In this document: positions 21,210 through 30,422 of the stretch, one piece after another
Layout: each line of letters opens with the position of its first letter
Numbering within the stretch: the first letter of the stretch is position 1
Source of the DNA: Candidatus Melainabacteria bacterium 17Bon1m
GTDB lineage: Bacteria; Cyanobacteriota; Vampirovibrionia; Obscuribacterales; Obscuribacteraceae
Reading direction: 5' to 3'
Assembly: GCA_032128875.1 (NCBI GenBank)
Contig: JAVLKG010000007.1
Coordinates: 160,001-224,000 of the forward strand
Length of the DNA: 64,000 nucleotides
Notes under the pieces: model-generated
The model's database searches: none
Told to the model about the DNA's origin: nothing
The model's input: only the letters and a program-made list of their open reading frames with translations
Translations under genes and position numbers: made by a program

Positions 21210-24200
21210 TTATGGCTGTTCGCTTATTTTTGCGCCTTTTGAGTACTTTGCCAGCCAACTGTATATGGCTGGCAACACGAGTAGAGTGAGAAGGGTGGAG
21301 GTGACGATGCCACCAATAACTACAGTTGCCAGAGGCTTTTGAACTTCCGCTCCGGAGCTGGTCGAGAGCGCCATTGGAAAGAAGCCGAGAGATGCCACCA
21401 TTGCTGTCATAAGAACCGGTCTCAATCGCACTTCGCAGGCGCGGCGAATAGCTGAATCGGGCTGCATGCCGTCTTCAATCAATCGGTTTATATAGGAGAC
21501 AAGAACAAGCCCATTCAATACCGCCACGCCAAAAAGGGCGACGAAGCCGATGCAAGCCGGCACGCTGAGATACATGCCACGCACCCACAAGGCCACCACT
21601 CCTCCGATCAAAGCGAAAGGCACATTTAGTAAGACCAAGAGAGCATGCTTGATTGAAGCAAAGGTGATTGTAAGCAAGAGAAAAATTATCAAGATTGAAA
21701 GCGGCACCACCAGAGTGAGTTTTTTCATTGCCCTCTGTTGATTCTCGAATTGACCGCTCCACTGCATGTAATATCCTGGAGGCAATTTGAGCGAAACCAG
21801 CTTGCGCTGGGCTTCTTGTACAAAAGACCCAACGTCGCGATTGCGCACATTGCATTGCACGACAATGCGCCGCTGTGCGAACTCTCGATTTATTACATTG
21901 ACACCTTCGTTGACTTCTATATTTGCTACTTGAGAAAGTGGCAAGCGCTTACCAGCAGAGTTTTGCACGATCAGATTTTGCACCGCTTTAGGATCAATGT
22001 TGCTCCCTTCCGGAAACTTCACTCTCAAATCAAACCGCTTGCGGCCTTCCAGTACCTCCGAGACAGGCATGCCCATTATTGCAGTCTGTACAACTGTCTG
22101 AATTTCGTTAACATTGACGGCGTATCGAGCCATGCGGTCACGATCGGGTGTGATTAGTAATTGGCCACTGCCAGTCAATTTTTCTACTTGTAGGTCCGTT
22201 TCTCCTTTGACAGTCTGAAGGACTTTCTCTACGGCAGTGGCTAGGTCAGCCAGGGTGTCGAGGTCATCACCAAATATTTTTACCGCTACATCCGAACGCA
22301 CTCCGGAGACGAGTTCGTCAACGCGCATGGCTATGAGTTGGGTAAAGCTGAAATTTCCACCGGGTACCTGTTTTTTTAGACGACTTCTCAGTTCATCTAC
22401 AAGCTTTTCCTTGGTCATTGCCGGACGCCATTTCTCTCGAGGTTGGAGAATTACATAAGCATCAGTTTGATTGACACTCATTGGATCTGTTGCCAGATCT
22501 GGCCTTCCTGTTCGGCAAACTACAGTTTTGATCTCAGGAACATCTTCTATAGCCTGCTCAATAATGTTGGAAACTTTTACTGCCTCTGGAAGTGAAATGC
22601 TGGGCAAGTTACGCGTTTCGATAATTATGTTTCCTTCCTCCAGTCTAGGCACGAATTCAGTGCCCAAAAGCGGAAGCGTAATCATGGTGATAACCAGCAT
22701 GGCAATTGCCACCATCATGGTGAGACGCCGATTGCGCAGGCACCAATCAAGACTGGAAAGATAGGGGCGTTTAATGGCATTGATGATAAAACTCTCCCAC
22801 TCCTTTACCTTGCCTCGCAGCAATAGCGAGCAAAGCACAGGCGTGAGCGTGAGGGCAATTATCAGTGAGCCAAGTAGAGCAAAGCAGACCGTAAAAACCA
22901 TTGGCGAAAACATTTTGTATTCCATGCCTTCCAGCGTCAGGATAGGCATATAAACAATGGTGATAATCAAGACACCAAACAAGATCGGTCTAGCCATTTC
23001 ACGCACCGATTCCTGAATGATTTGCAGATTACTGAATTCTTGATCTGGATTGTGAGCCAATCGGCGCAGACAGTTTTCAACCATGACAATTGAGCCGTCG
23101 ACGATCATTCCGAAATCGACGGCGCCCAAACTCATAATGTTCGCTGTGATGCCTAGTTCCTTCATGCCCATGAATGAAAACATCATTGAAATCGGAATCG
23201 CAGCCGCGACAATCAGGGCCGCGCGCAAATTGCCGAGCATAAGCAAGAGGACGAGAATTACCAGGGCGCCGCCTTCAATCAGGTTGGTTCCAACTGTATG
23301 AATGGTCTCTTCAACCAGGATTGATTGATCGTAAAACGGCTTGAGCGTTATACCTTCTGGCAATGTCGACTTGATTTGCTCTATGCGCTCTTTGACACGC
23401 TCAATTACTTCACGACTGTTTTCTCCTTTGAGCATCATTACGATGCCTGTTACCACTTCTCCCGCGCCGCTCATGGTTGCAGCACCCTGTCTGGGAGCAG
23501 TGCCTATATTGACACTGCCGATGGTGCGTACAAAAATAGGCACACCATTATGGGACTTGACGATAATATTCTCAATATCGGCTATTCCGCGCACCCGTCC
23601 TGTTCCGCGCACTGTGTACTGTTCGGCATCATGATTGATGATGCCGGCTCCGAAATTGTCATTGTTTTTTCTTAGCGCTTCAAAAACGTCTTGCACTGTC
23701 AGACTATATTGCTGTAGCTTGATTGGAGAGATGGTAACGATGTATTCCTGTGTTTCGCCTCCAAATGTATTTACTTCTGCAATTCCCGGCACCGATCGCA
23801 GCTGATACTTGATCTGCCAGTCTTGCAGGGTTTTCAAATCTGTCAGGCTGTATGACTTGCCTTCGACAACATAGTGATAGATTTCTCCCATCGCCGTTGC
23901 CACCGGACCGAGCTGCGGATCGATGCCCTTAGGCAGGCGTGCGCGGGCTGATTGCAGTCTTTCGAACACCAGTTGACGCGCGAAGTAAATGTTGACTTTG
24001 TCCTCAAAGACGACGGAAACGACAGATAGTCCAAACTTGGACAATGATCGTACTTGAGTGACATAAGGCAAGCCGTTCATGATTGATTCAATGGGTATAG
24101 TCACCAGTTGCTCAGCTTCAAGAGGTGCCATTCCTGGGGCATCCGTAAGGATTTGCACCTGGTTGTTGGCTAAATCTGGAAAAGCATCAATCGGCAGAGT

Positions 24201-24293
24201 GACAAGAGCTTGAATCCCTCCAGCCAATACGAACAAGAAGAAAATGCAAACAGGTAAACGATGTTTGACTAAGTTGGCGAAAAAACTCTCCAT
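21210..24293 (-). CDS. czcA: CusA/CzcA family heavy-metal efflux RND permease
   Basis: LPIDAFPD, LGPVATAMGEIY, NIMSLGAVDFGMIVDGSIVMVEN, RLRPVLMTA, GAEVQKPLATVVIGG; 1027 aa. Confidence 0.93.
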   Translation of the reverse strand: MESFFANLVKHRLPVCIFFLFVLAGGIQALVTLPIDAFPDLANNQVQILTDAPGMAPLEAEQLVTIPIESIMNGLPYVTQVRSLSKFGLSVVSVVFEDKVNIYFARQLVFERLQSARARLPKGIDPQLGPVATAMGEIYHYVVEGKSYSLTDLKTLQDWQIKYQLRSVPGIAEVNTFGGETQEYIVTISPIKLQQYSLTVQDVFEALRKNNDNFGAGIINHDAEQYTVRGTGRVRGIADIENIIVKSHNGVPIFVRTIGSVNIGTAPRQGAATMSGAGEVVTGIVMMLKGENSREVIERVKERIEQIKSTLPEGITLKPFYDQSILVEETIHTVGTNLIEGGALVILVLLLMLGNLRAALIVAAAIPISMMFSFMGMKELGITANIMSLGAVDFGMIVDGSIVMVENCLRRLAHNPDQEFSNLQIIQESVREMARPILFGVLIITIVYMPILTLEGMEYKMFSPMVFTVCFALLGSLIIALTLTPVLCSLLLRGKVKEWESFIINAIKRPYLSSLDWCLRNRRLTMMVAIAMLVITMITLPLLGTEFVPRLEEGNIIIETRNLPSISLPEAVKVSNIIEQAIEDVPEIKTVVCRTGRPDLATDPMSVNQTDAYVILQPREKWRPAMTKEKLVDELRSRLKKQVPGGNFSFTQLIAMRVDELVSGVRSDVAVKIFGDDLDTLADLATAVEKVLQTVKGETDLQVEKLTGSGQLLITPDRDRMARYAVNVNEIQTVVQTAIMGMPVSEVLEGRKRFDLRVKFPEGSNIDPKAVQNLIVQNSAGKRLPLSQVANIEVNEGVNVINREFAQRRIVVQCNVRNRDVGSFVQEAQRKLVSLKLPPGYYMQWSGQFENQQRAMKKLTLVVPLSILIIFLLLTITFASIKHALLVLLNVPFALIGGVVALWVRGMYLSVPACIGFVALFGVAVLNGLVLVSYINRLIEDGMQPDSAIRRACEVRLRPVLMTAMVASLGFFPMALSTSSGAEVQKPLATVVIGGIVTSTLLTLLVLPAIYSWLAKYSKGAKISEQP

Positions 24294-25507
24294 CAGCGTT
24301 CACCTGCCATCGTGCCTTTGAGCATTTCAGCTTTCAGTGTGAAACTGCCTTTGGCGACGATTAACTGCCCAGGCTTAATTCCATGTGCAATCAGATAGCC
24401 GTCTTCAAGCTCCTTAGCTGGTTCGACCACCTGTTTTTTGAAAGAGCCATCGGGCTCGACCAGGAAAACGAATTGTTCTTTGCCATACTTCTGAAGCGCG
24501 TCTTCAGGAATATATGCCAACTGTTCTGCCCGGTGCTGCTCTATTCTTACCTGCCCCACCATGCCTGGTTTCAAGTCCATATGTGGATTGTCGAGCACTG
24601 CTCGGGCGACGTAAGTTCCACTGCTATCTTCTGAAGACGGCTTGATGTAGCTCAACCTACTTCTGAGCACGCGCCCGGGAATTCCATCGGTTGTAAACGT
24701 GACTGAATCGCCTTCCTTGATGCTCTGAATTTGTTTGTCATAAACATTGATATCAAGCCAGACATGGCTCAAATCTCCAACCACGTACAGCGGTTCTATA
24801 TTGGAGACGACATCTCCTACCGTCACGGTCTTTTTGATGATCACTCCACCTCGCGGTGTGGTGATCGGGCTGCTGCTCTCAATGTGCGCCACGCTCGTAT
24901 CGCCGAGCTTGACTCCGTAGGCTGCCAGCATTGACCGGGCTTCTTCACGAATGTGAATTGCGTGTTCTTTCAAACCTCTGAGCGTTTCTTCTTCTAGTTT
25001 TTTGTCTGATTCAGCCTTTATGTAGTCCTTCTCGGCAGCGATTTTCTCTTCATACAACCCTCGAATACGGTCGTAGTTTTTCTTGGCAAGCGCAAGGCGA
25101 GTCTGAGACAGCTCGGTCTCGATTTGATTCTGGTGTGACTGGTGAATGAAGTCCCCGTATACCTTTGCCACATCCAAGTTTTGAACGATCGCCAGCGTCT
25201 GACCGGGATGAATGATGTCGCCGAGCATCACCTTGTCACTAATGACTCGCCCGCCAGACAAAGAATTGATGTGAAATACACGATTCTCATCAGCTTTGAT
25301 CGTGCCTGTTGTGGAGAACGTCTGAATATCAGGTCTTTGCCCGACCGTAACCACACTCAAGCCGAAATGTTCAATCGCCACTGGAGACAATGTGATTCGG
25401 TCGACCGGTTTGGCAGTCTCTGCGGGCTTCTCGAGAGTCTCTGGTCGTGAGCAGCCGGCAATACCGATGCACAAAACCAGCAATATAATTACTAGTCTAT
25501 ATTTCAT
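24293..25507 (-). CDS. czcB: RND efflux periplasmic adaptor (CzcB/CusB-like)
   Basis: Lipoprotein-like signal (IGIAGC); PRGGVI, DLSHVW, LKPGM; stop overlaps the czcA start (TGATG). Confidence 0.88.
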   Translation of the reverse strand: MKYRLVIILLVLCIGIAGCSRPETLEKPAETAKPVDRITLSPVAIEHFGLSVVTVGQRPDIQTFSTTGTIKADENRVFHINSLSGGRVISDKVMLGDIIHPGQTLAIVQNLDVAKVYGDFIHQSHQNQIETELSQTRLALAKKNYDRIRGLYEEKIAAEKDYIKAESDKKLEEETLRGLKEHAIHIREEARSMLAAYGVKLGDTSVAHIESSSPITTPRGGVIIKKTVTVGDVVSNIEPLYVVGDLSHVWLDINVYDKQIQSIKEGDSVTFTTDGIPGRVLRSRLSYIKPSSEDSSGTYVARAVLDNPHMDLKPGMVGQVRIEQHRAEQLAYIPEDALQKYGKEQFVFLVEPDGSFKKQVVEPAKELEDGYLIAHGIKPGQLIVAKGSFTLKAEMLKGTMAGER

Positions 25508-25638: not shown

Positions 25639-26031
25639 TTAGATCAGCAGCGCCCGATTGATTATGTATAGTCTGGTTGCAGGTTGATCTGTCTTCTGCG
25701 CTTTTGGAGGCCCACGTTGACTGCTATTTTCAGCAAGTATTTGCCGTCGGTTAAACGTAACCCTGACGATCGAATGCCAGGCAGGCGTCTGGGGCTGTAC
25801 GCTTATGTCTTTGGGATCTAATCTTGATGCGACAACGGCGTCGTGAAGGTGCCCTTCCAGGTAGGAATCTGGGTCTGTGGGAGACAGAAGTGTGCACAGG
25901 GAATTGTCAGCCGCAGCCGCATGTGCAACTGAAGAAACAGATAGCTGGTCGGGCGCACCCATATCATGCAACAGTGTGCCTGTCCAAAGAAGGACAAATA
26001 GCATCAGTGTTAGCAATAATTTGCGGGACAT
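25639..26031 (-). CDS. Small exported protein upstream of czcBA (DUF2946/CzcI-like)
   Basis: Hydrophobic N-terminus, His residues (GHLHD) and a C-proximal RGPP motif, as in small ORFs preceding metal-transport operons. Confidence 0.5.
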   Translation of the reverse strand: MSRKLLLTLMLFVLLWTGTLLHDMGAPDQLSVSSVAHAAAADNSLCTLLSPTDPDSYLEGHLHDAVVASRLDPKDISVQPQTPAWHSIVRVTFNRRQILAENSSQRGPPKAQKTDQPATRLYIINRALLI

Positions 26032-26258
26032 GAACTCGAGCATTTGCCTCAAGATGAATGCATTATTCATAGCATAGCTCAGAAGCTGGTAGGACAGTCT
26101 CATCCTTGCGGATGACGGGTTGTTTGCTTTTAGGTAGTCAGAACGGTTAGTAAAAAATCTTCTTCGTAATAAGCATTTGTTTCGCCTAAATGTGTGACAA
26201 GCCTCACATAGGATTGTGTGAGTTTGATATGGTGAATTTGTAGCTTAAGGAACCTTGT

Positions 26259-26331: not shown

Positions 26332-26375
26332 TTACAGGTGGTATGAATTTCTCGAGAAATTCATACCACCTGTAA
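26332..26375. repeat. Perfect 44-bp palindrome, copy 2
   Basis: ttacaggtggtatgaatttct-cg-agaaattcataccacctgtaa is its own reverse complement. Confidence 0.85.
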
Positions 26376-26645
26376 CTAGATGTCTAGGTCATTCCATGGT
26401 GCTTGCAAGCAACAACAGAGAAGTATGAAAGGAATCGCAAACACACCTGTTTTCAGAATGAAGATGCCACTAATTAGAAAACCACAGCTCCAATAATGGT
26501 CAACGGGACCACCCTTGTCTGCGAACGTCATAACTAAATAAAAGACCGAGAGAGAGACTGAAAATATAGACGGGAGTGCAAGCAGGAAAGCCAGTATTCG
26601 AAGCGGTTGTGGAACTTTGAATTTGCGTTTTGGATAGCTACTCAT
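26376..26645 (-). CDS. Small two-TM hypothetical protein
   Basis: 89 aa with two hydrophobic segments; a degenerate copy of its 3' end lies at about 21121-21205. Confidence 0.55.
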   Translation of the reverse strand: MSSYPKRKFKVPQPLRILAFLLALPSIFSVSLSVFYLVMTFADKGGPVDHYWSCGFLISGIFILKTGVFAIPFILLCCCLQAPWNDLDI

Positions 26646-26876: not shown

Positions 26877-27386
26877 TTAGTCGCCTCCGCCACCTCCACA
26901 ACTGCTGCCGCCACCACCACAGCTCGAGCCGCTGGAGCAGCTGGAACCGCCGGAGCAGCTCGAACCACCATAGTAGCCACCCGAGGATGATCCGCCGGAA
27001 CGACGACCGCGACTGCCACTGCCACCACGACGCTTGCGCGGAGGCGTGCGTTTGCTGGACGTGGAAGTCGGCCAGGACGAGGACTGCATAGGTGCTGGTG
27101 CCGGCGTTGGCTTGTCCTTGCTCAGACTGATGGGAGCCGGAGTGACAGGCGTGGGGACAACACGTGCGCGCGATTCCGCCAGTCGGTCCTCAAACCTCGT
27201 GCGCGTTGCCTCTCGCGTGGCTTCACGTGCTGCTTCGCGGGCAGCGGTGGCACGGCGAGCGGCGGCCAGACGCGATTCTTCGCGGATGCGTGCTTGCTTG
27301 CGTTCCCAGCCGATGACAAATATCACCAGCGAAACAACGCTGACCAGCGCGGCTGCGATCAGAACGTAACTCTGAAACTCGGTCAT
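26877..27386 (-). CDS. Single-TM protein with a C-terminal Ser/Gly/Cys tail
   Basis: SD ggag; N-terminal TM, Arg-rich helix, tail GGYYGGSSCSGGSSCSSGSSCGGGGSSCGGGGGD. Confidence 0.8.
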   Translation of the reverse strand: MTEFQSYVLIAAALVSVVSLVIFVIGWERKQARIREESRLAAARRATAAREAAREATREATRTRFEDRLAESRARVVPTPVTPAPISLSKDKPTPAPAPMQSSSWPTSTSSKRTPPRKRRGGSGSRGRRSGGSSSGGYYGGSSCSGGSSCSSGSSCGGGGSSCGGGGGD

Positions 27387-27464
27387 GTTTGCACTCCATT
27401 TTCACTTTCGGAAAAGGTAGGAGGCGAGAAAACCACTTGTGTGGATCGCTCGCCTCCGAGTGCC

Positions 27465-27965
27465 TTAGGGCGCTTTGCGTCCTTTGGCGATCACGTTCTT
27501 TCGGTTTCCCGGACCCCAGACTGCAACGGGCGGCTCACCGAAGTGTTTCCGGTAAGACTCCAGCGTTTTCAGATACTGGTTGGCGAAAACCGCCTCATCA
27601 CCTGGCTCTCCCTGACCGGGGTCATGGTGAATGAGCTTGCCGACGACGTCGCCAAGCTCTTCCCAATACGAGCGAGTGAAGATGAGGTGCGTGTGCCACA
27701 CTTCATCAACCACGAAGGACGGAGTGACAGGGTGGTCGCAAACCGCAGCCAGGAAGATGAAGCGCTTGTACTCTTCAATCGCCTGCTGCGCGAATTCGAT
27801 GGACCAGTCCTGCTCATCCGCCAAACGCATCGAGAAAGGGTACGGAGCACCCTGTTTGTCGATGCGAAATTCTAAGATTTGCCGGCGAAGTGAGGCTATA
27901 TCAGCGACTTTACTCGGAGTTGTGCGTGCCGTCGCGGCAGCGCAATCAGGGAAGTAGGCAGCCAA
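27465..27965 (-). CDS. Stand-alone glycine-rich-domain-containing-protein (GRDP)-like domain protein
   Basis: TTG start behind SD gaggag; FSMRLADEQDWS, AIEEYKRFIFL, VTPSFVVDEVWHTHLIFTRSY, IHHDP, YLKTLESYRKHFGEPP-x3-W. Confidence 0.8.
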   Translation of the reverse strand: MAAYFPDCAAATARTTPSKVADIASLRRQILEFRIDKQGAPYPFSMRLADEQDWSIEFAQQAIEEYKRFIFLAAVCDHPVTPSFVVDEVWHTHLIFTRSYWEELGDVVGKLIHHDPGQGEPGDEAVFANQYLKTLESYRKHFGEPPVAVWGPGNRKNVIAKGRKAP

Positions 27966-28035
27966 TTCGAATTCTCCTCTTTACTGTTGCAATCAGCGAT
28001 TCAGGCGAACCGCGTGCAAATGTGTGGAAATTCGA

Positions 28036-29193
28036 TTAGCCGCCGCCGCCGCAACCGCCACCACCGCCGCCACCACAGCTGCTGCCGCCGCTGCTGCAGG
28101 ACGAGCCTGAGCTGGAGCTGCAAGAAGAGCCGGAGCTGGACGAGGAGCTGCAAGACGGCGTGCTGGGAGTGCTGCAGCTCGGAGCGACCGGAGGCACGTA
28201 GCCGCTGTCGCTGGAGCTGGAGCCGGAGTCGCGACGCGGTTCGTCGTCATTGCGACGAATGGTCTCGGAAAGCAGAACACCAGCAACGACGCCGGCGCCG
28301 GCAGCCGCAGCAGTGTTGATGCCATCGTTGTCGCCACGACGACGGTTGTCGTCATCGCCATCCGGTGCGTCGACACCACCGGCGGTGCCGCCAGTGCGGT
28401 TGCGACGGCTGTCGCTGAGGCGTCCTTCGAAGCCGCTGCCGGGCTTGCGCGTGGTCGGGCGAGCCGGAGGCGTGTAGGTCGAGGACGGACGGCGCGGCGG
28501 GAAGATGAGCCGTGCGAGGAGCGCGACGGCAATGACGCCGCCCGCAATGATCAGCAGAGTAGTGCCGATGCCCATGGAATTGTCTCCTTCGGTGGTGCCG
28601 GAAGTCGGCTGATTGCCGCCGCCGGAATTGGCAGGCGGATAAACTTTGGAGGTGACGATTGCGTTGAGGTTGTTGACGATGCGCACCGGAACGGATGCCG
28701 GATCGCTTGCGAGGTAGGAGCGAAGAACAGGCATGACGGGCCCGTTCGGATCATTCATCGTGGCGCGCATGATGCCGAGGTTATTGAGATAACCACCGGC
28801 GCGAACACCAACGGAAGTGAGCGTGTGCCTATCTCCGGTCATGAGGACGATGACGGCGCGGTCGGACTTGAACGCGACATCGGCGGTCCATCTGGTCCAG
28901 AGATTGCGCACCAGAACCGGTCCTGCCTGACGTGCATCACTGCCGGCATCGTCGCCCGAAGCCGTGATGATGACATACACGTCGAGATTGTGGACTCTTG
29001 CTGCATTTCCGATTTCGGTCTTGAACGCCTGCGTTGCGTATGTGCCCTCGAAGGACGCATCCACGCCGGGAGCGATATAGACCGTTTGTCCTGCATTGTA
29101 GGTTGGCAGCCAGCTCGTTTGAGCGGCAGCGGTTCCAACCAGTGCGAAGAACATCAGCAAGAGCAGCGGAATTGTGTTCAGCAGTCTTTTCAT
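28036..29193 (-). CDS. Signal peptide, TPM-like extracytoplasmic domain, TM helix and C-terminal Ser/Gly/Cys tail
   Basis: ATG at 29193 behind SD aggag; signal ending AAA; DVYVII...DRAVIVLM...VGVRAG resembles TPM/DUF477; tail PSCSTPSTPSCSSSSSSGSSCSSSSGSSCSSGGSSCGGGGGGGCGGGG. Confidence 0.78.
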   Translation of the reverse strand: MKRLLNTIPLLLLMFFALVGTAAAQTSWLPTYNAGQTVYIAPGVDASFEGTYATQAFKTEIGNAARVHNLDVYVIITASGDDAGSDARQAGPVLVRNLWTRWTADVAFKSDRAVIVLMTGDRHTLTSVGVRAGGYLNNLGIMRATMNDPNGPVMPVLRSYLASDPASVPVRIVNNLNAIVTSKVYPPANSGGGNQPTSGTTEGDNSMGIGTTLLIIAGGVIAVALLARLIFPPRRPSSTYTPPARPTTRKPGSGFEGRLSDSRRNRTGGTAGGVDAPDGDDDNRRRGDNDGINTAAAAGAGVVAGVLLSETIRRNDDEPRRDSGSSSSDSGYVPPVAPSCSTPSTPSCSSSSSSGSSCSSSSGSSCSSGGSSCGGGGGGGCGGGG

Positions 29194-29738: not shown

Positions 29739-30422
29739 ATGCAAGGTAGTTTGCTGCGGTCGATTTTGTTTGCTGGTGTTGCACTTTCCATCACAGCATG
29801 TAGTTCTGGTGGTGGTGGTGGAAGCACTACGGATTCAGCATCAACTGGCGGTGCCAGTGGACCAGAGCAACGCAAAGAAGGCATGAAGTTCGTCGATGCC
29901 GCATACAAACTCCGGACCGAAGGCAAGCTTCCAGAGTCGCTCGTCGAAATTGACAAAGCCATCGCACTTGATAAAAACAATTACTACGCCTGGCAATTGC
30001 GCGGTGATATCAACAGTGTTTTAAACAAAGCAGAAGACGCGATTGAAGATCTGAACAAGGCCATCGAGCTGAAACCTAGCGACCCGGCACTCTTCTACGC
30101 ACGCGGAAAGTACGAGGGGCAAGCAAGAAAGTTCGATGATGCGTTGAAAGATGCAGAGAAAGCCGTAAGTCTCGATCCGAAGAACATTGATTATTTGTAC
30201 ATGCGTGCCAGTGGTTATGCGATTGCACAGGAATACAAGAAAGCCGTTGCTGATGCGACGACTGTTCTCGGTTCTGACCCGAAAAATATGAATGCACTGC
30301 GACTGCGCTCTGTCTGCTATTTCAAATCAGGCAATAAAAAACTCTCGGCCTCTGATGACCGCGAATACCAAAGACTCGCGCGCAACAACGCCCGCGTCAT
30401 TCCAGTCAACGGAATGCAGTAA
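29739..30422 (+). CDS. TPR-repeat lipoprotein
   Basis: Lipobox SITAC; TPR units (KAIALD, AIEDLNKAIELKP, KAVSLDP); SD aggag. Confidence 0.85.
   Translation: MQGSLLRSILFAGVALSITACSSGGGGGSTTDSASTGGASGPEQRKEGMKFVDAAYKLRTEGKLPESLVEIDKAIALDKNNYYAWQLRGDINSVLNKAEDAIEDLNKAIELKPSDPALFYARGKYEGQARKFDDALKDAEKAVSLDPKNIDYLYMRASGYAIAQEYKKAVADATTVLGSDPKNMNALRLRSVCYFKSGNKKLSASDDREYQRLARNNARVIPVNGMQ

Follow-up and report, generated by a model that had tools for sequence, protein, structure and literature searches.

Related systems and the locus under study

Several groups of described proteins resemble the locus reported here, which lies at positions 26877-29193 of a 64,000-nt stretch of contig JAVLKG010000007.1 (assembly GCA_032128875.1; this whole stretch is called the window) and in which a soluble protein, B, is encoded between two membrane proteins, A and C, that end in Gly/Ser/Cys tails. 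One-chain membrane proteins of the PF27765/TIGR04222 kind share with this locus the PF27765 domain, its D..WH.H and HH.P residues, the type of tail and the membrane anchoring. In contrast to these fused proteins, the domain here forms a soluble protein of its own, two other proteins without TIGR04222 bear the tails, and B has Gly in the place of a Cys. The MNIO-associated TIGR04222 proteins are described, in the passages of Leprevost et al. that deal with them, as membrane proteins whose unstructured C-terminal Ser/Gly regions contain Cys and are candidate substrates for modification (PMC12452194). According to the same passages, subsets of TIGR04222 proteins were proposed as MNIO substrates, a third of the TIGR04222-bearing genomes have no MNIO, and an N-terminal domain of the TIGR04222 proteins is not mentioned there (PMC12452194). 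Unlike those systems, the present locus contains no MNIO gene, and its tails would be cytoplasmic by layout, whereas periplasmic ones were predicted in that paper.

The general layout of A is already known from YgcG/Psb32-like TPM proteins, with which it shares a signal peptide, the TPM fold, a transmembrane (TM) helix and a Gly-rich C-terminal extension. Unlike them, A has no sequence match to PF04536, carries conserved Cys in its tail and is linked to the gene of B; its Cys content and this link are its special parts. Precursors of the microcin B17 type (thiazole/oxazole-modified microcins, TOMM) contain Gly/Ser/Cys-rich segments whose Cys are enzymatically modified and which resemble the tails. 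In contrast to the precursors of microcin B17, bufferins and oxazolins, no leader, no adjacent YcaO or MNIO gene and no tail export signal is present here, and the 'core', in the sense used for ribosomally synthesized and post-translationally modified peptides (RiPPs), is the tail of a membrane protein.

A more distant likeness is found in plants. AtGRDP2 has an N-terminal DUF1399 domain and a C-terminal glycine-rich domain with the consensus [CG]GGGCGG[GC] (PMC4299439). Plant GRDP1 and GRDP2 (PF07173) show remote similarity to B over its motif region (profile positions 90-141) and the same pairing of domain and Gly/Cys tail, whereas they are about 790 amino acids (aa) long, contain an RNP-1 motif and, in the relevant part of that paper, are not described as membrane proteins (PMC4299439); B, moreover, stays below the cut-off of their family. 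Going by the paper's description of GRDP2, the pairing seems to extend to plants. A full-text literature search found no paper naming UCP032817, PF27765 or PIRSF032817, and TIGR04222 turned up in 3 papers only. The PF27765 family is already catalogued but unstudied, and the split variant described here is new.

Gene organization of the locus

The source genome (7.55 Mb, 93% complete) has its closest public relatives among metagenome-assembled genomes (MAGs) labelled Candidatus Melainabacteria or Obscuribacterales. Genes A, B and C are co-oriented on the minus strand between 26877 and 29193, and their open reading frames (ORFs) and Cys positions agree with the original prediction that the cysteines of the two outer proteins are confined to their tails. 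The genes and their parts are as follows, in window positions.

28036..29193, minus strand: gene A, 385 aa, with a signal peptide, a TPM-fold ectodomain, one TM helix, a long disordered region and a Gly/Ser/Cys tail (ORF and translation)
28636..29115, minus strand: A residues 27-186, predicted TPM-fold extracytoplasmic domain (AlphaFold2, Foldseek, VIA-align)
28501..28557, minus strand: A residues 213-231, TM helix followed by an Arg/Lys-rich stretch (hydropathy 2.64)
28405..28431, minus strand: A residues 255-263, juxtamembrane motif F-x-x-R-L-x-x-S-R, with F255 and R258 invariant; also in C
28267..28323, minus strand: A residues 291-309, conserved Ala/Gly-rich (glycine-zipper-like) segment, borderline hydrophobic (Kyte-Doolittle 1.5-1.8)
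28039..28176, minus strand: A residues 340-385, Ser/Gly tail with 6 Cys (translation, Cys positions)
27465..27965, minus strand: gene B, 166 aa, soluble stand-alone UCP032817-like (PF27765) domain, with a TTG start behind a GAGGAG ribosome-binding site
27687..27707, minus strand: B residues 87-93, DEVWHTH, with D87, W90, H91 and H93 kept family-wide
27618..27629, minus strand: B residues 113-116, HHDP, with H113, H114 and P116 kept family-wide
26877..27386, minus strand: gene C, 169 aa, with an N-terminal TM anchor, a charged helix, a Pro/Ser-rich linker and a Gly/Ser tail with 4 Cys and a final Asp
27309..27365, minus strand: C residues 8-26, TM helix followed by basic residues (hydropathy 2.96)
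27168..27194, minus strand: C residues 65-73, F-x-x-R-L-x-x-S-R motif (motif search)
26880..26957, minus strand: C residues 144-169, Cys tail ending in CGGGGGD (translation, Cys positions)

As judged from sequence comparison, the reading of A-B-C as a split version of a widespread one-chain membrane protein is well supported. In the one-chain form, a cytoplasmic UCP032817-like domain at the N-terminus is followed by two or about four TM helices (with TIGR04222 in the longer forms) and a Gly/Ser/Cys tail at the C-terminus, while here the domain is the free cytoplasmic protein B and the tails sit on the single-pass proteins A, which has a TPM ectodomain, and C, which is a bare anchor. The original prediction had proposed such a split, and it is upheld both by the one-chain relatives and by the retention of the split arrangement in related genomes.

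One-chain relatives

In a phylum sample of 401 genomes, the domain was matched in 33 genomes, with 29 loci besides the window's own. Fifteen of these loci combine the domain, TM helices and a long Gly/Cys tail in a single frame, four further ones have a short Cys-Gly end, and the remainder are stand-alone genes or fragments. A profile of the B family, made from 22 sequences, found 10,425 representatives (50% identity) at E <= 0.001, including 1,860 at E <= 1e-30. Among the best 150 of the 10,425 representatives, which were also used for reading conservation, 98 are long proteins with a Cys/Gly/Ser tail and 40 are long proteins without one, many of them fragment-like; the rest are two proteins with a Gly/Ser tail of fewer than 2 Cys and ten short, stand-alone ones. 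In 148 of these 150, all 98 tail-bearers among them, the domain begins no later than residue 40. Cyanobacteria have fused forms, and so do two MAGs, one of Verrucomicrobiaceae and one of Chitinophagaceae.

The domain had been said to be commonly fused to TIGR04222-type tail proteins, and this holds for the representatives studied. An NCBIfam scan covered 60 long representatives out of 140, chosen along the list from P0025 to P0112 with most of the tail-less ones left out; TIGR04222 scored above its cut-off in 22 of the 60, all of at least 446 aa, and below it in 3 more. The fused forms of 250-340 aa have two TM helices and no TIGR04222. In the source genome, TIGR04222 (cut-off 43 bits) gave no match at E <= 1 for A, B or C, and the best score, 12.5 bits, fell elsewhere.

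The neighbourhoods of fused forms, in 28 loci, showed no conserved neighbour beyond lineage-local synteny and no recurrent metal gene. A cluster of TPR proteins recurs in 7 of these 28 loci, but proteins with TPR repeats readily group together. The domain occurs twice in tandem, without a tail, in one locus (L096, genome G451) and in 11 of the 150 representatives. As well, the representative P0116 joins the domain to DUF2207 (PF09972, E 8e-14), which is likewise predicted to be a family of membrane proteins.

Conservation of the split arrangement

The order A-B-C (or A-B-C') is found in the window and in all six related loci in which both flanks are present (L035-L037 and L064-L066); L066 and L065 apparently come from the same organisms as L037 and L038. 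In L038, B is followed by a tail gene and the upstream side ends at the contig edge. The downstream genes of L036, L038 and L065 are not homologous to C, yet they encode an N-terminal TM helix and an SSCGGGGCG(G)D end.

In a class-wide sample of 201 genomes, the domain is present in 16 genomes, 14 of them among the 47 genomes of the window's own family, and there are 20 loci outside the window; the domain stands alone in Obscuribacteraceae-like genomes. The original prediction called for a neighbourhood survey of stand-alone copies for tail partners, and such partners were found: a tail-bearing membrane gene adjoins the domain gene in 13 of the 20 class-level loci. Twelve of these 13 tail neighbours lie upstream on the same strand, and most share with A a homologous first part of the ectodomain. 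One upstream neighbour is a bare anchor on its own and one has 876 aa, and at two loci an A-like and a C-like gene are both upstream. The remaining tail neighbour is transcribed divergently and encodes a TIGR04222-like protein that has a tail. The downstream gene C is variable in relatives; as far as gene order indicates, the conserved core is the tail gene or genes upstream of B, and the flanking arrangement of the window is one lineage's version of it.

A second, independent kind of split arrangement is the pairing of the domain with a kinase. Three cyanobacterial loci (L055, L061 and L062, in genomes G158, G095 and G086) have a gene for a membrane Ser/Thr kinase of 479-487 aa that ends in CGCGC or CGGGC; the stand-alone domain gene adjoins or overlaps this kinase gene at its stop codon.

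Long Ala/Val-rich N-terminal 'extensions' of stand-alone homologues in L085, L086 and P0017-P0022 appear to be miscalled starts. They would be the Gly/Cys-tail DNA of the upstream gene in another frame, and the tail gene overlaps the domain gene in L085 and L086.

Cysteine tails and membrane topology

The only Cys of A are at residues 340, 348, 358, 366, 373 and 381, and the only Cys of C at residues 144, 150, 156 and 163, all within the tails. They had been described as regularly spaced; the counts of six and four are correct, whereas the spacing, 7-10 residues in A and 6-7 in C, is only roughly and not strictly periodic. Across 15 orthologues of A, with identity as low as 46%, no change is seen at C366, C373 or C381. 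In the 98 fused tail-bearers, the tails contain 2 to 9 Cys (median 5) at variable spacing, and 45 of them end in Asp, as does C. The tail DNA contains only short, imperfect repeats of 9-24 bp. A long tandem array was considered for it and rejected in favour of low-complexity coding sequence with such repeats.

Such tails are rare in the genome. When all ORFs of at least 80 aa in six frames of the whole genome were required to have at least 70% G/S/C and at least 2 Cys in their last 25 residues, 3 of 19,588 passed, namely A, C and one unrelated 83-aa protein. The pairing of tail and domain is therefore more than chance, since two of the three genome tails flank the single B gene. The third ORF (G000:C4:74525-74776) encodes a zinc-ribbon-like N-terminus of the CxxC...CxxC type and a tail ending in CGSCSSSSCGTCH, and looks FmdB-like.

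The tails of A and C would be cytoplasmic, on the same side as B. A cytoplasmic position of both domain and tail is suggested by the basic stretches that follow the TM helices of A and C and by the Lys+Arg pattern of the 30 two-TM fused forms, in which the mean count is 3.6 in the 15 residues before the first TM helix, 1.4 in the loop and 3.8 after the second TM helix. By a crude hydropathy scan of the 98 tail-bearers, 30 have two TM helices, 28 have four, 35 have an odd number, four have none and one has eight.

Protein B: family, conserved residues and fold

B was originally taken to be GRDP-like, which did not hold at the family cut-off: against PF07173 it scored 15.9 bits (E 0.022, profile positions 90-141), and the cut-off is 22.7 bits. 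A genome-wide PF07173 scan returned this same single sub-threshold match, and B is also the only match in the genome to its own family profile. Among 26 relatives of B, four matched PF07173 at E <= 0.01 and one scored above the cut-off. No match was obtained in an NCBIfam scan of B. Of 23 homologues comparable to B in length, 21 have a precomputed PF27765 label, and one of these 21 is 98% identical to B. PF27765 accounts for 78-90% of the four top Atlas cluster sets, where it goes by the name 'UCP032817-like'; in one Atlas cluster, roughly a tenth of the proteins bear a GRDP-like label too. By the labels of these homologues, B belongs to PF27765 (UCP032817-like), a sister family and remote relative of GRDP-like/DUF1399.

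Conservation of the DEVWHTH and HHDP residues had also been raised, and it is found for most of them. Across the 150 representatives, D87 is kept in 149, W90 in 150, H91 in 149 and H93 in 149, and in the second motif H113 is kept in 146, H114 in 150 and P116 in 149 of 149; Y100 is also kept in at least 146. The Asp and His residues D87, H91, H93, H113 and H114 are thus nearly invariant, whereas E88 and D115 vary across the wider family. The pattern formed by D87, W90, H91, H93, Y100, H113, H114 and P116 looks enzyme-like. Residue 105 (27651-27653), in a YWxxFC context, is Cys in 143 of the 150 representatives and Gly in B and its closest stand-alone relatives; this Cys is retained in another stand-alone clade.

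The AlphaFold2 model of B is mostly helical (predicted local distance difference test, pLDDT, 84), and B has neither a signal peptide nor a TM helix by hydropathy. The profile of B found no PDB sequence with an E-value better than 0.12, and an Atlas search with PF27765 and PF07173 excluded gave no usable match. A co-fold of B with C residues 110-169, a piece that does not include the FxxRLxxSR motif, scored 0.00 in a run without controls and so speaks neither way on binding.

Protein A and motifs shared by the tail proteins

Of 15 aligned A orthologues, 14 have an MKRLL-like start, and a relative 95% identical to A is named 'uncharacterized membrane protein YgcG' in one source. The AlphaFold2 model has a pLDDT of about 80 for residues 27-186 and leaves the long region after the TM helix disordered. 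Foldseek with the ectodomain ranked TPM-domain chains in places 1-16, including BA41, AtTLP18.3, Psb32, PG_0361 and Rhom172_1776, and VIA-align of residues 27-186 gave Z 8.2-11.9 to 14 TPM entries, with the next row at 5.4. According to its predicted model, the ectodomain has the TPM fold, as had been proposed for one of the partners. At the sequence level, PF04536 (TPM_phosphatase) matched neither A (E <= 1) nor any protein genome-wide (E <= 0.01), and a PDB sequence search with the ectodomain found nothing meaningful (best E 0.44).

The F-x-x-R-L-x-x-S-R motif, present in A and C, is found in 15 of 22 distinct tail-bearing neighbour proteins, and an Ala/Gly-rich motif like that of A residues 291-309 in 13 of the 22. 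Either motif could be a docking site.

MNIO and YcaO genes

Two MNIO (PF05114) genes are present in the genome, one on contig C6 and one on C11, whereas the window belongs to C7. One of them belongs to a classical cluster (G000:C6:181774-185556, L002) that has a 321-aa MNIO gene, a 268-aa partner gene and, upstream, two signal-peptide proteins with Lys-rich Cys repeats of the EGSCKGK type, and that looks like an oxazolin/bufferin-type RiPP locus. There are also two YcaO genes, both on contig C3 and neither adjacent to the tail genes. In a survey of 20 cyanobacterial genomes (99-100% complete) that encode a fused domain-tail protein, PF05114 was absent from 17, and in the other three it lay on another contig or more than 1 Mb away. 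The tails of the PF27765-fused subfamily are therefore independent of MNIO.

Genomic surroundings

Downstream of gene C, on the same strand, two genes of metal efflux are present.

24293-25507, minus strand: CzcB-like adaptor
21210-24293, minus strand: CusA/CzcA heavy-metal efflux pump of the resistance-nodulation-division (RND) type (TIGR00914, 1215.8 bits against a cut-off of 701)

Two small conserved genes (26376-26645 and 25639-26103) sit between gene C and the adaptor. The synteny with the Czc pump is kept in the close relatives L035 and L036 and absent in L037 and L038; because it is limited to close relatives, it is only a weak hint of a metal connection.

On the other side, a TPR lipoprotein-like gene, divergently transcribed, lies at 29739-30422. 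TPR genes also adjoin the domain gene in the cyanobacterial loci L050, L054 and L062, which repeat similarity alone may explain. The contigs of four sequencing runs break at 26332-26375, where there is a 44-base record with about twice the depth; this suggests a short repeat that is present elsewhere in the genome. Three RNA-labelled runs contain the locus as contigs of 5-29 kb, and their longest records are 125-182 kb; they look like DNA in the library and are hence uninformative on transcription or operon structure. A promoter scan of the locus found no promoter-like sites, and the terminator scan found 6 terminator-like sites against 4.6 expected, which is uninformative.

Possible functions of the locus

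Functional coupling of B with the tails is very probable. The coupling of domain and tail is well supported because the two are fused in cis in the one-chain proteins, their adjacency is conserved in split loci, and two of the three tails in the genome flank B. Our preferred reading of this coupling, held tentatively and at somewhat less than an even chance, is that B acts in the cytoplasm as a metal-dependent domain, docking on its partners and processing their tail cysteines chemically. The Asp/His cluster D87, H91, H93, H113 and H114 would be a putative metal site, and B would dock on A and C through either the tail or the juxtamembrane FxxRLxxSR motif that they share. Chemical processing of the tail cysteines would then take place in the cytoplasm, as a RiPP-like maturation in place on a membrane-tethered peptide, and might yield a metal-binding or redox-active tail.

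Several points weigh against this processing role. Its chemistry, metal binding and contact are predictions, and a 1:1 tether of domain and tail in cis is more typical of binding or a co-ligand relation than of a turnover enzyme. With Gly in the place of Cys, the clade of B may lack part of the usual site. Foldseek of B against the PDB found nothing at E <= 0.001, the best VIA-align Z among 48,161 chains was 3.2, and since there is no solved relative, no reaction is hinted at by the fold. Seven of the 20 class-level domain copies have no tail neighbour; they are the most divergent ones, and one has a Cys-rich C-terminus of its own. Topology is a further point: the crude scan gave odd TM counts for 35 of the 98 fused forms, and the tails of the TIGR04222 proteins modelled by Leprevost et al. 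were predicted to be periplasmic (PMC12452194). The cytoplasmic placement of both tails in the original prediction keeps its footing in the basic residues after the TM helices and is less secure for A, in which the segment at residues 291-309 is possibly a second TM helix that would place the tail outside the cell.

The main rival is a stoichiometric metal site or buffer, in which the tail thiolates would hold Cu(I), Zn, Cd or Fe-S without covalent change and the His-rich domain would complete, load or sense the site, perhaps feeding the neighbouring CzcBA-type efflux pump. We consider it less likely than processing, with roughly one chance in several, although some of the evidence suits it quite well. 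The 1:1 cis tether in 98 of the 150 representatives fits a co-ligand relation, the variable number and spacing of the tail Cys suit a capacity function, and the conserved His/Asp residues and the domain Cys (143/150) are typical soft-metal ligands. The same-strand genes for the CusA/CzcA pump and its adaptor further downstream point the same way, but this synteny is lost in L037 and L038, and no recurrent metal gene stands beside the fused forms in 28 loci. A signalling or scaffold role is distinctly less likely than a metal buffer. In such a role, B would bind the juxtamembrane motif or tail of A and C and relay a state sensed by the TPM domain, with the kinase as partner in the cyanobacterial loci, and the Cys tail could act as a redox or lipid-contact switch. 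The kinds of partner, among them a protein with a TPM ectodomain and a membrane-bound Ser/Thr kinase, and the motif common to 15 of 22 partners speak for it, yet C and many fused forms have no sensing domain, and a near-invariant Asp/His set would be unusual for a plain adaptor.

Chemistry on the tails could also come from elsewhere, with the tails as RiPP-like substrates of the MNIO or YcaO enzymes of the genome and B as a recognition or chaperone element. Gly/Ser/Cys cores do resemble microcin B17, and with two MNIO and two YcaO genes in the genome, action in trans is conceivable; that subsets of TIGR04222 proteins were proposed as MNIO substrates by Leprevost et al. fits as well (PMC12452194). 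But both MNIO genes are on other contigs, one of them in a classical cluster with its own precursor, 17 of 20 fused-form genomes have no MNIO, and the YcaO genes are on C3, not C7, and we consider this explanation very unlikely. Slimmer still is the chance that there is no functional link at all, A being an ordinary YgcG/Psb32-like TPM protein with the Gly-rich C-terminal extension customary in that family, C a low-complexity membrane protein and B a mere neighbour. This is already disfavoured by the cis fusions, by an adjacency that is kept with partners of unrelated architecture, and by the two of three genome tails that flank B.

Significance

A bolder extension of the processing role, which we regard as unlikely, is that the UCP032817/GRDP-type domain founds a new class of small metal-dependent enzymes that would mature Gly/Cys tails, in cis or in trans, at the cytoplasmic face of the membrane, analogous to MNIO and YcaO acting on secreted RiPPs. 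Such a class would reach from bacteria to the plant GRDP stress proteins, and the Obscuribacteraceae locus would be its natural two-component form.

The near-constant pairing of this domain with a Gly/Cys tail points to an unknown protein chemistry or metal handling, and the pairing is echoed by the plant GRDP proteins, which have growth and stress phenotypes. Unlike in the fused protein, the candidate enzyme or reader and its candidate substrates are separable in this natural split form, and the pairing is directly testable. Moreover, the locus bears on a question from the part of Leprevost et al. that deals with TIGR04222 proteins, namely the fate of TIGR04222-type tails in genomes without MNIO (PMC12452194).

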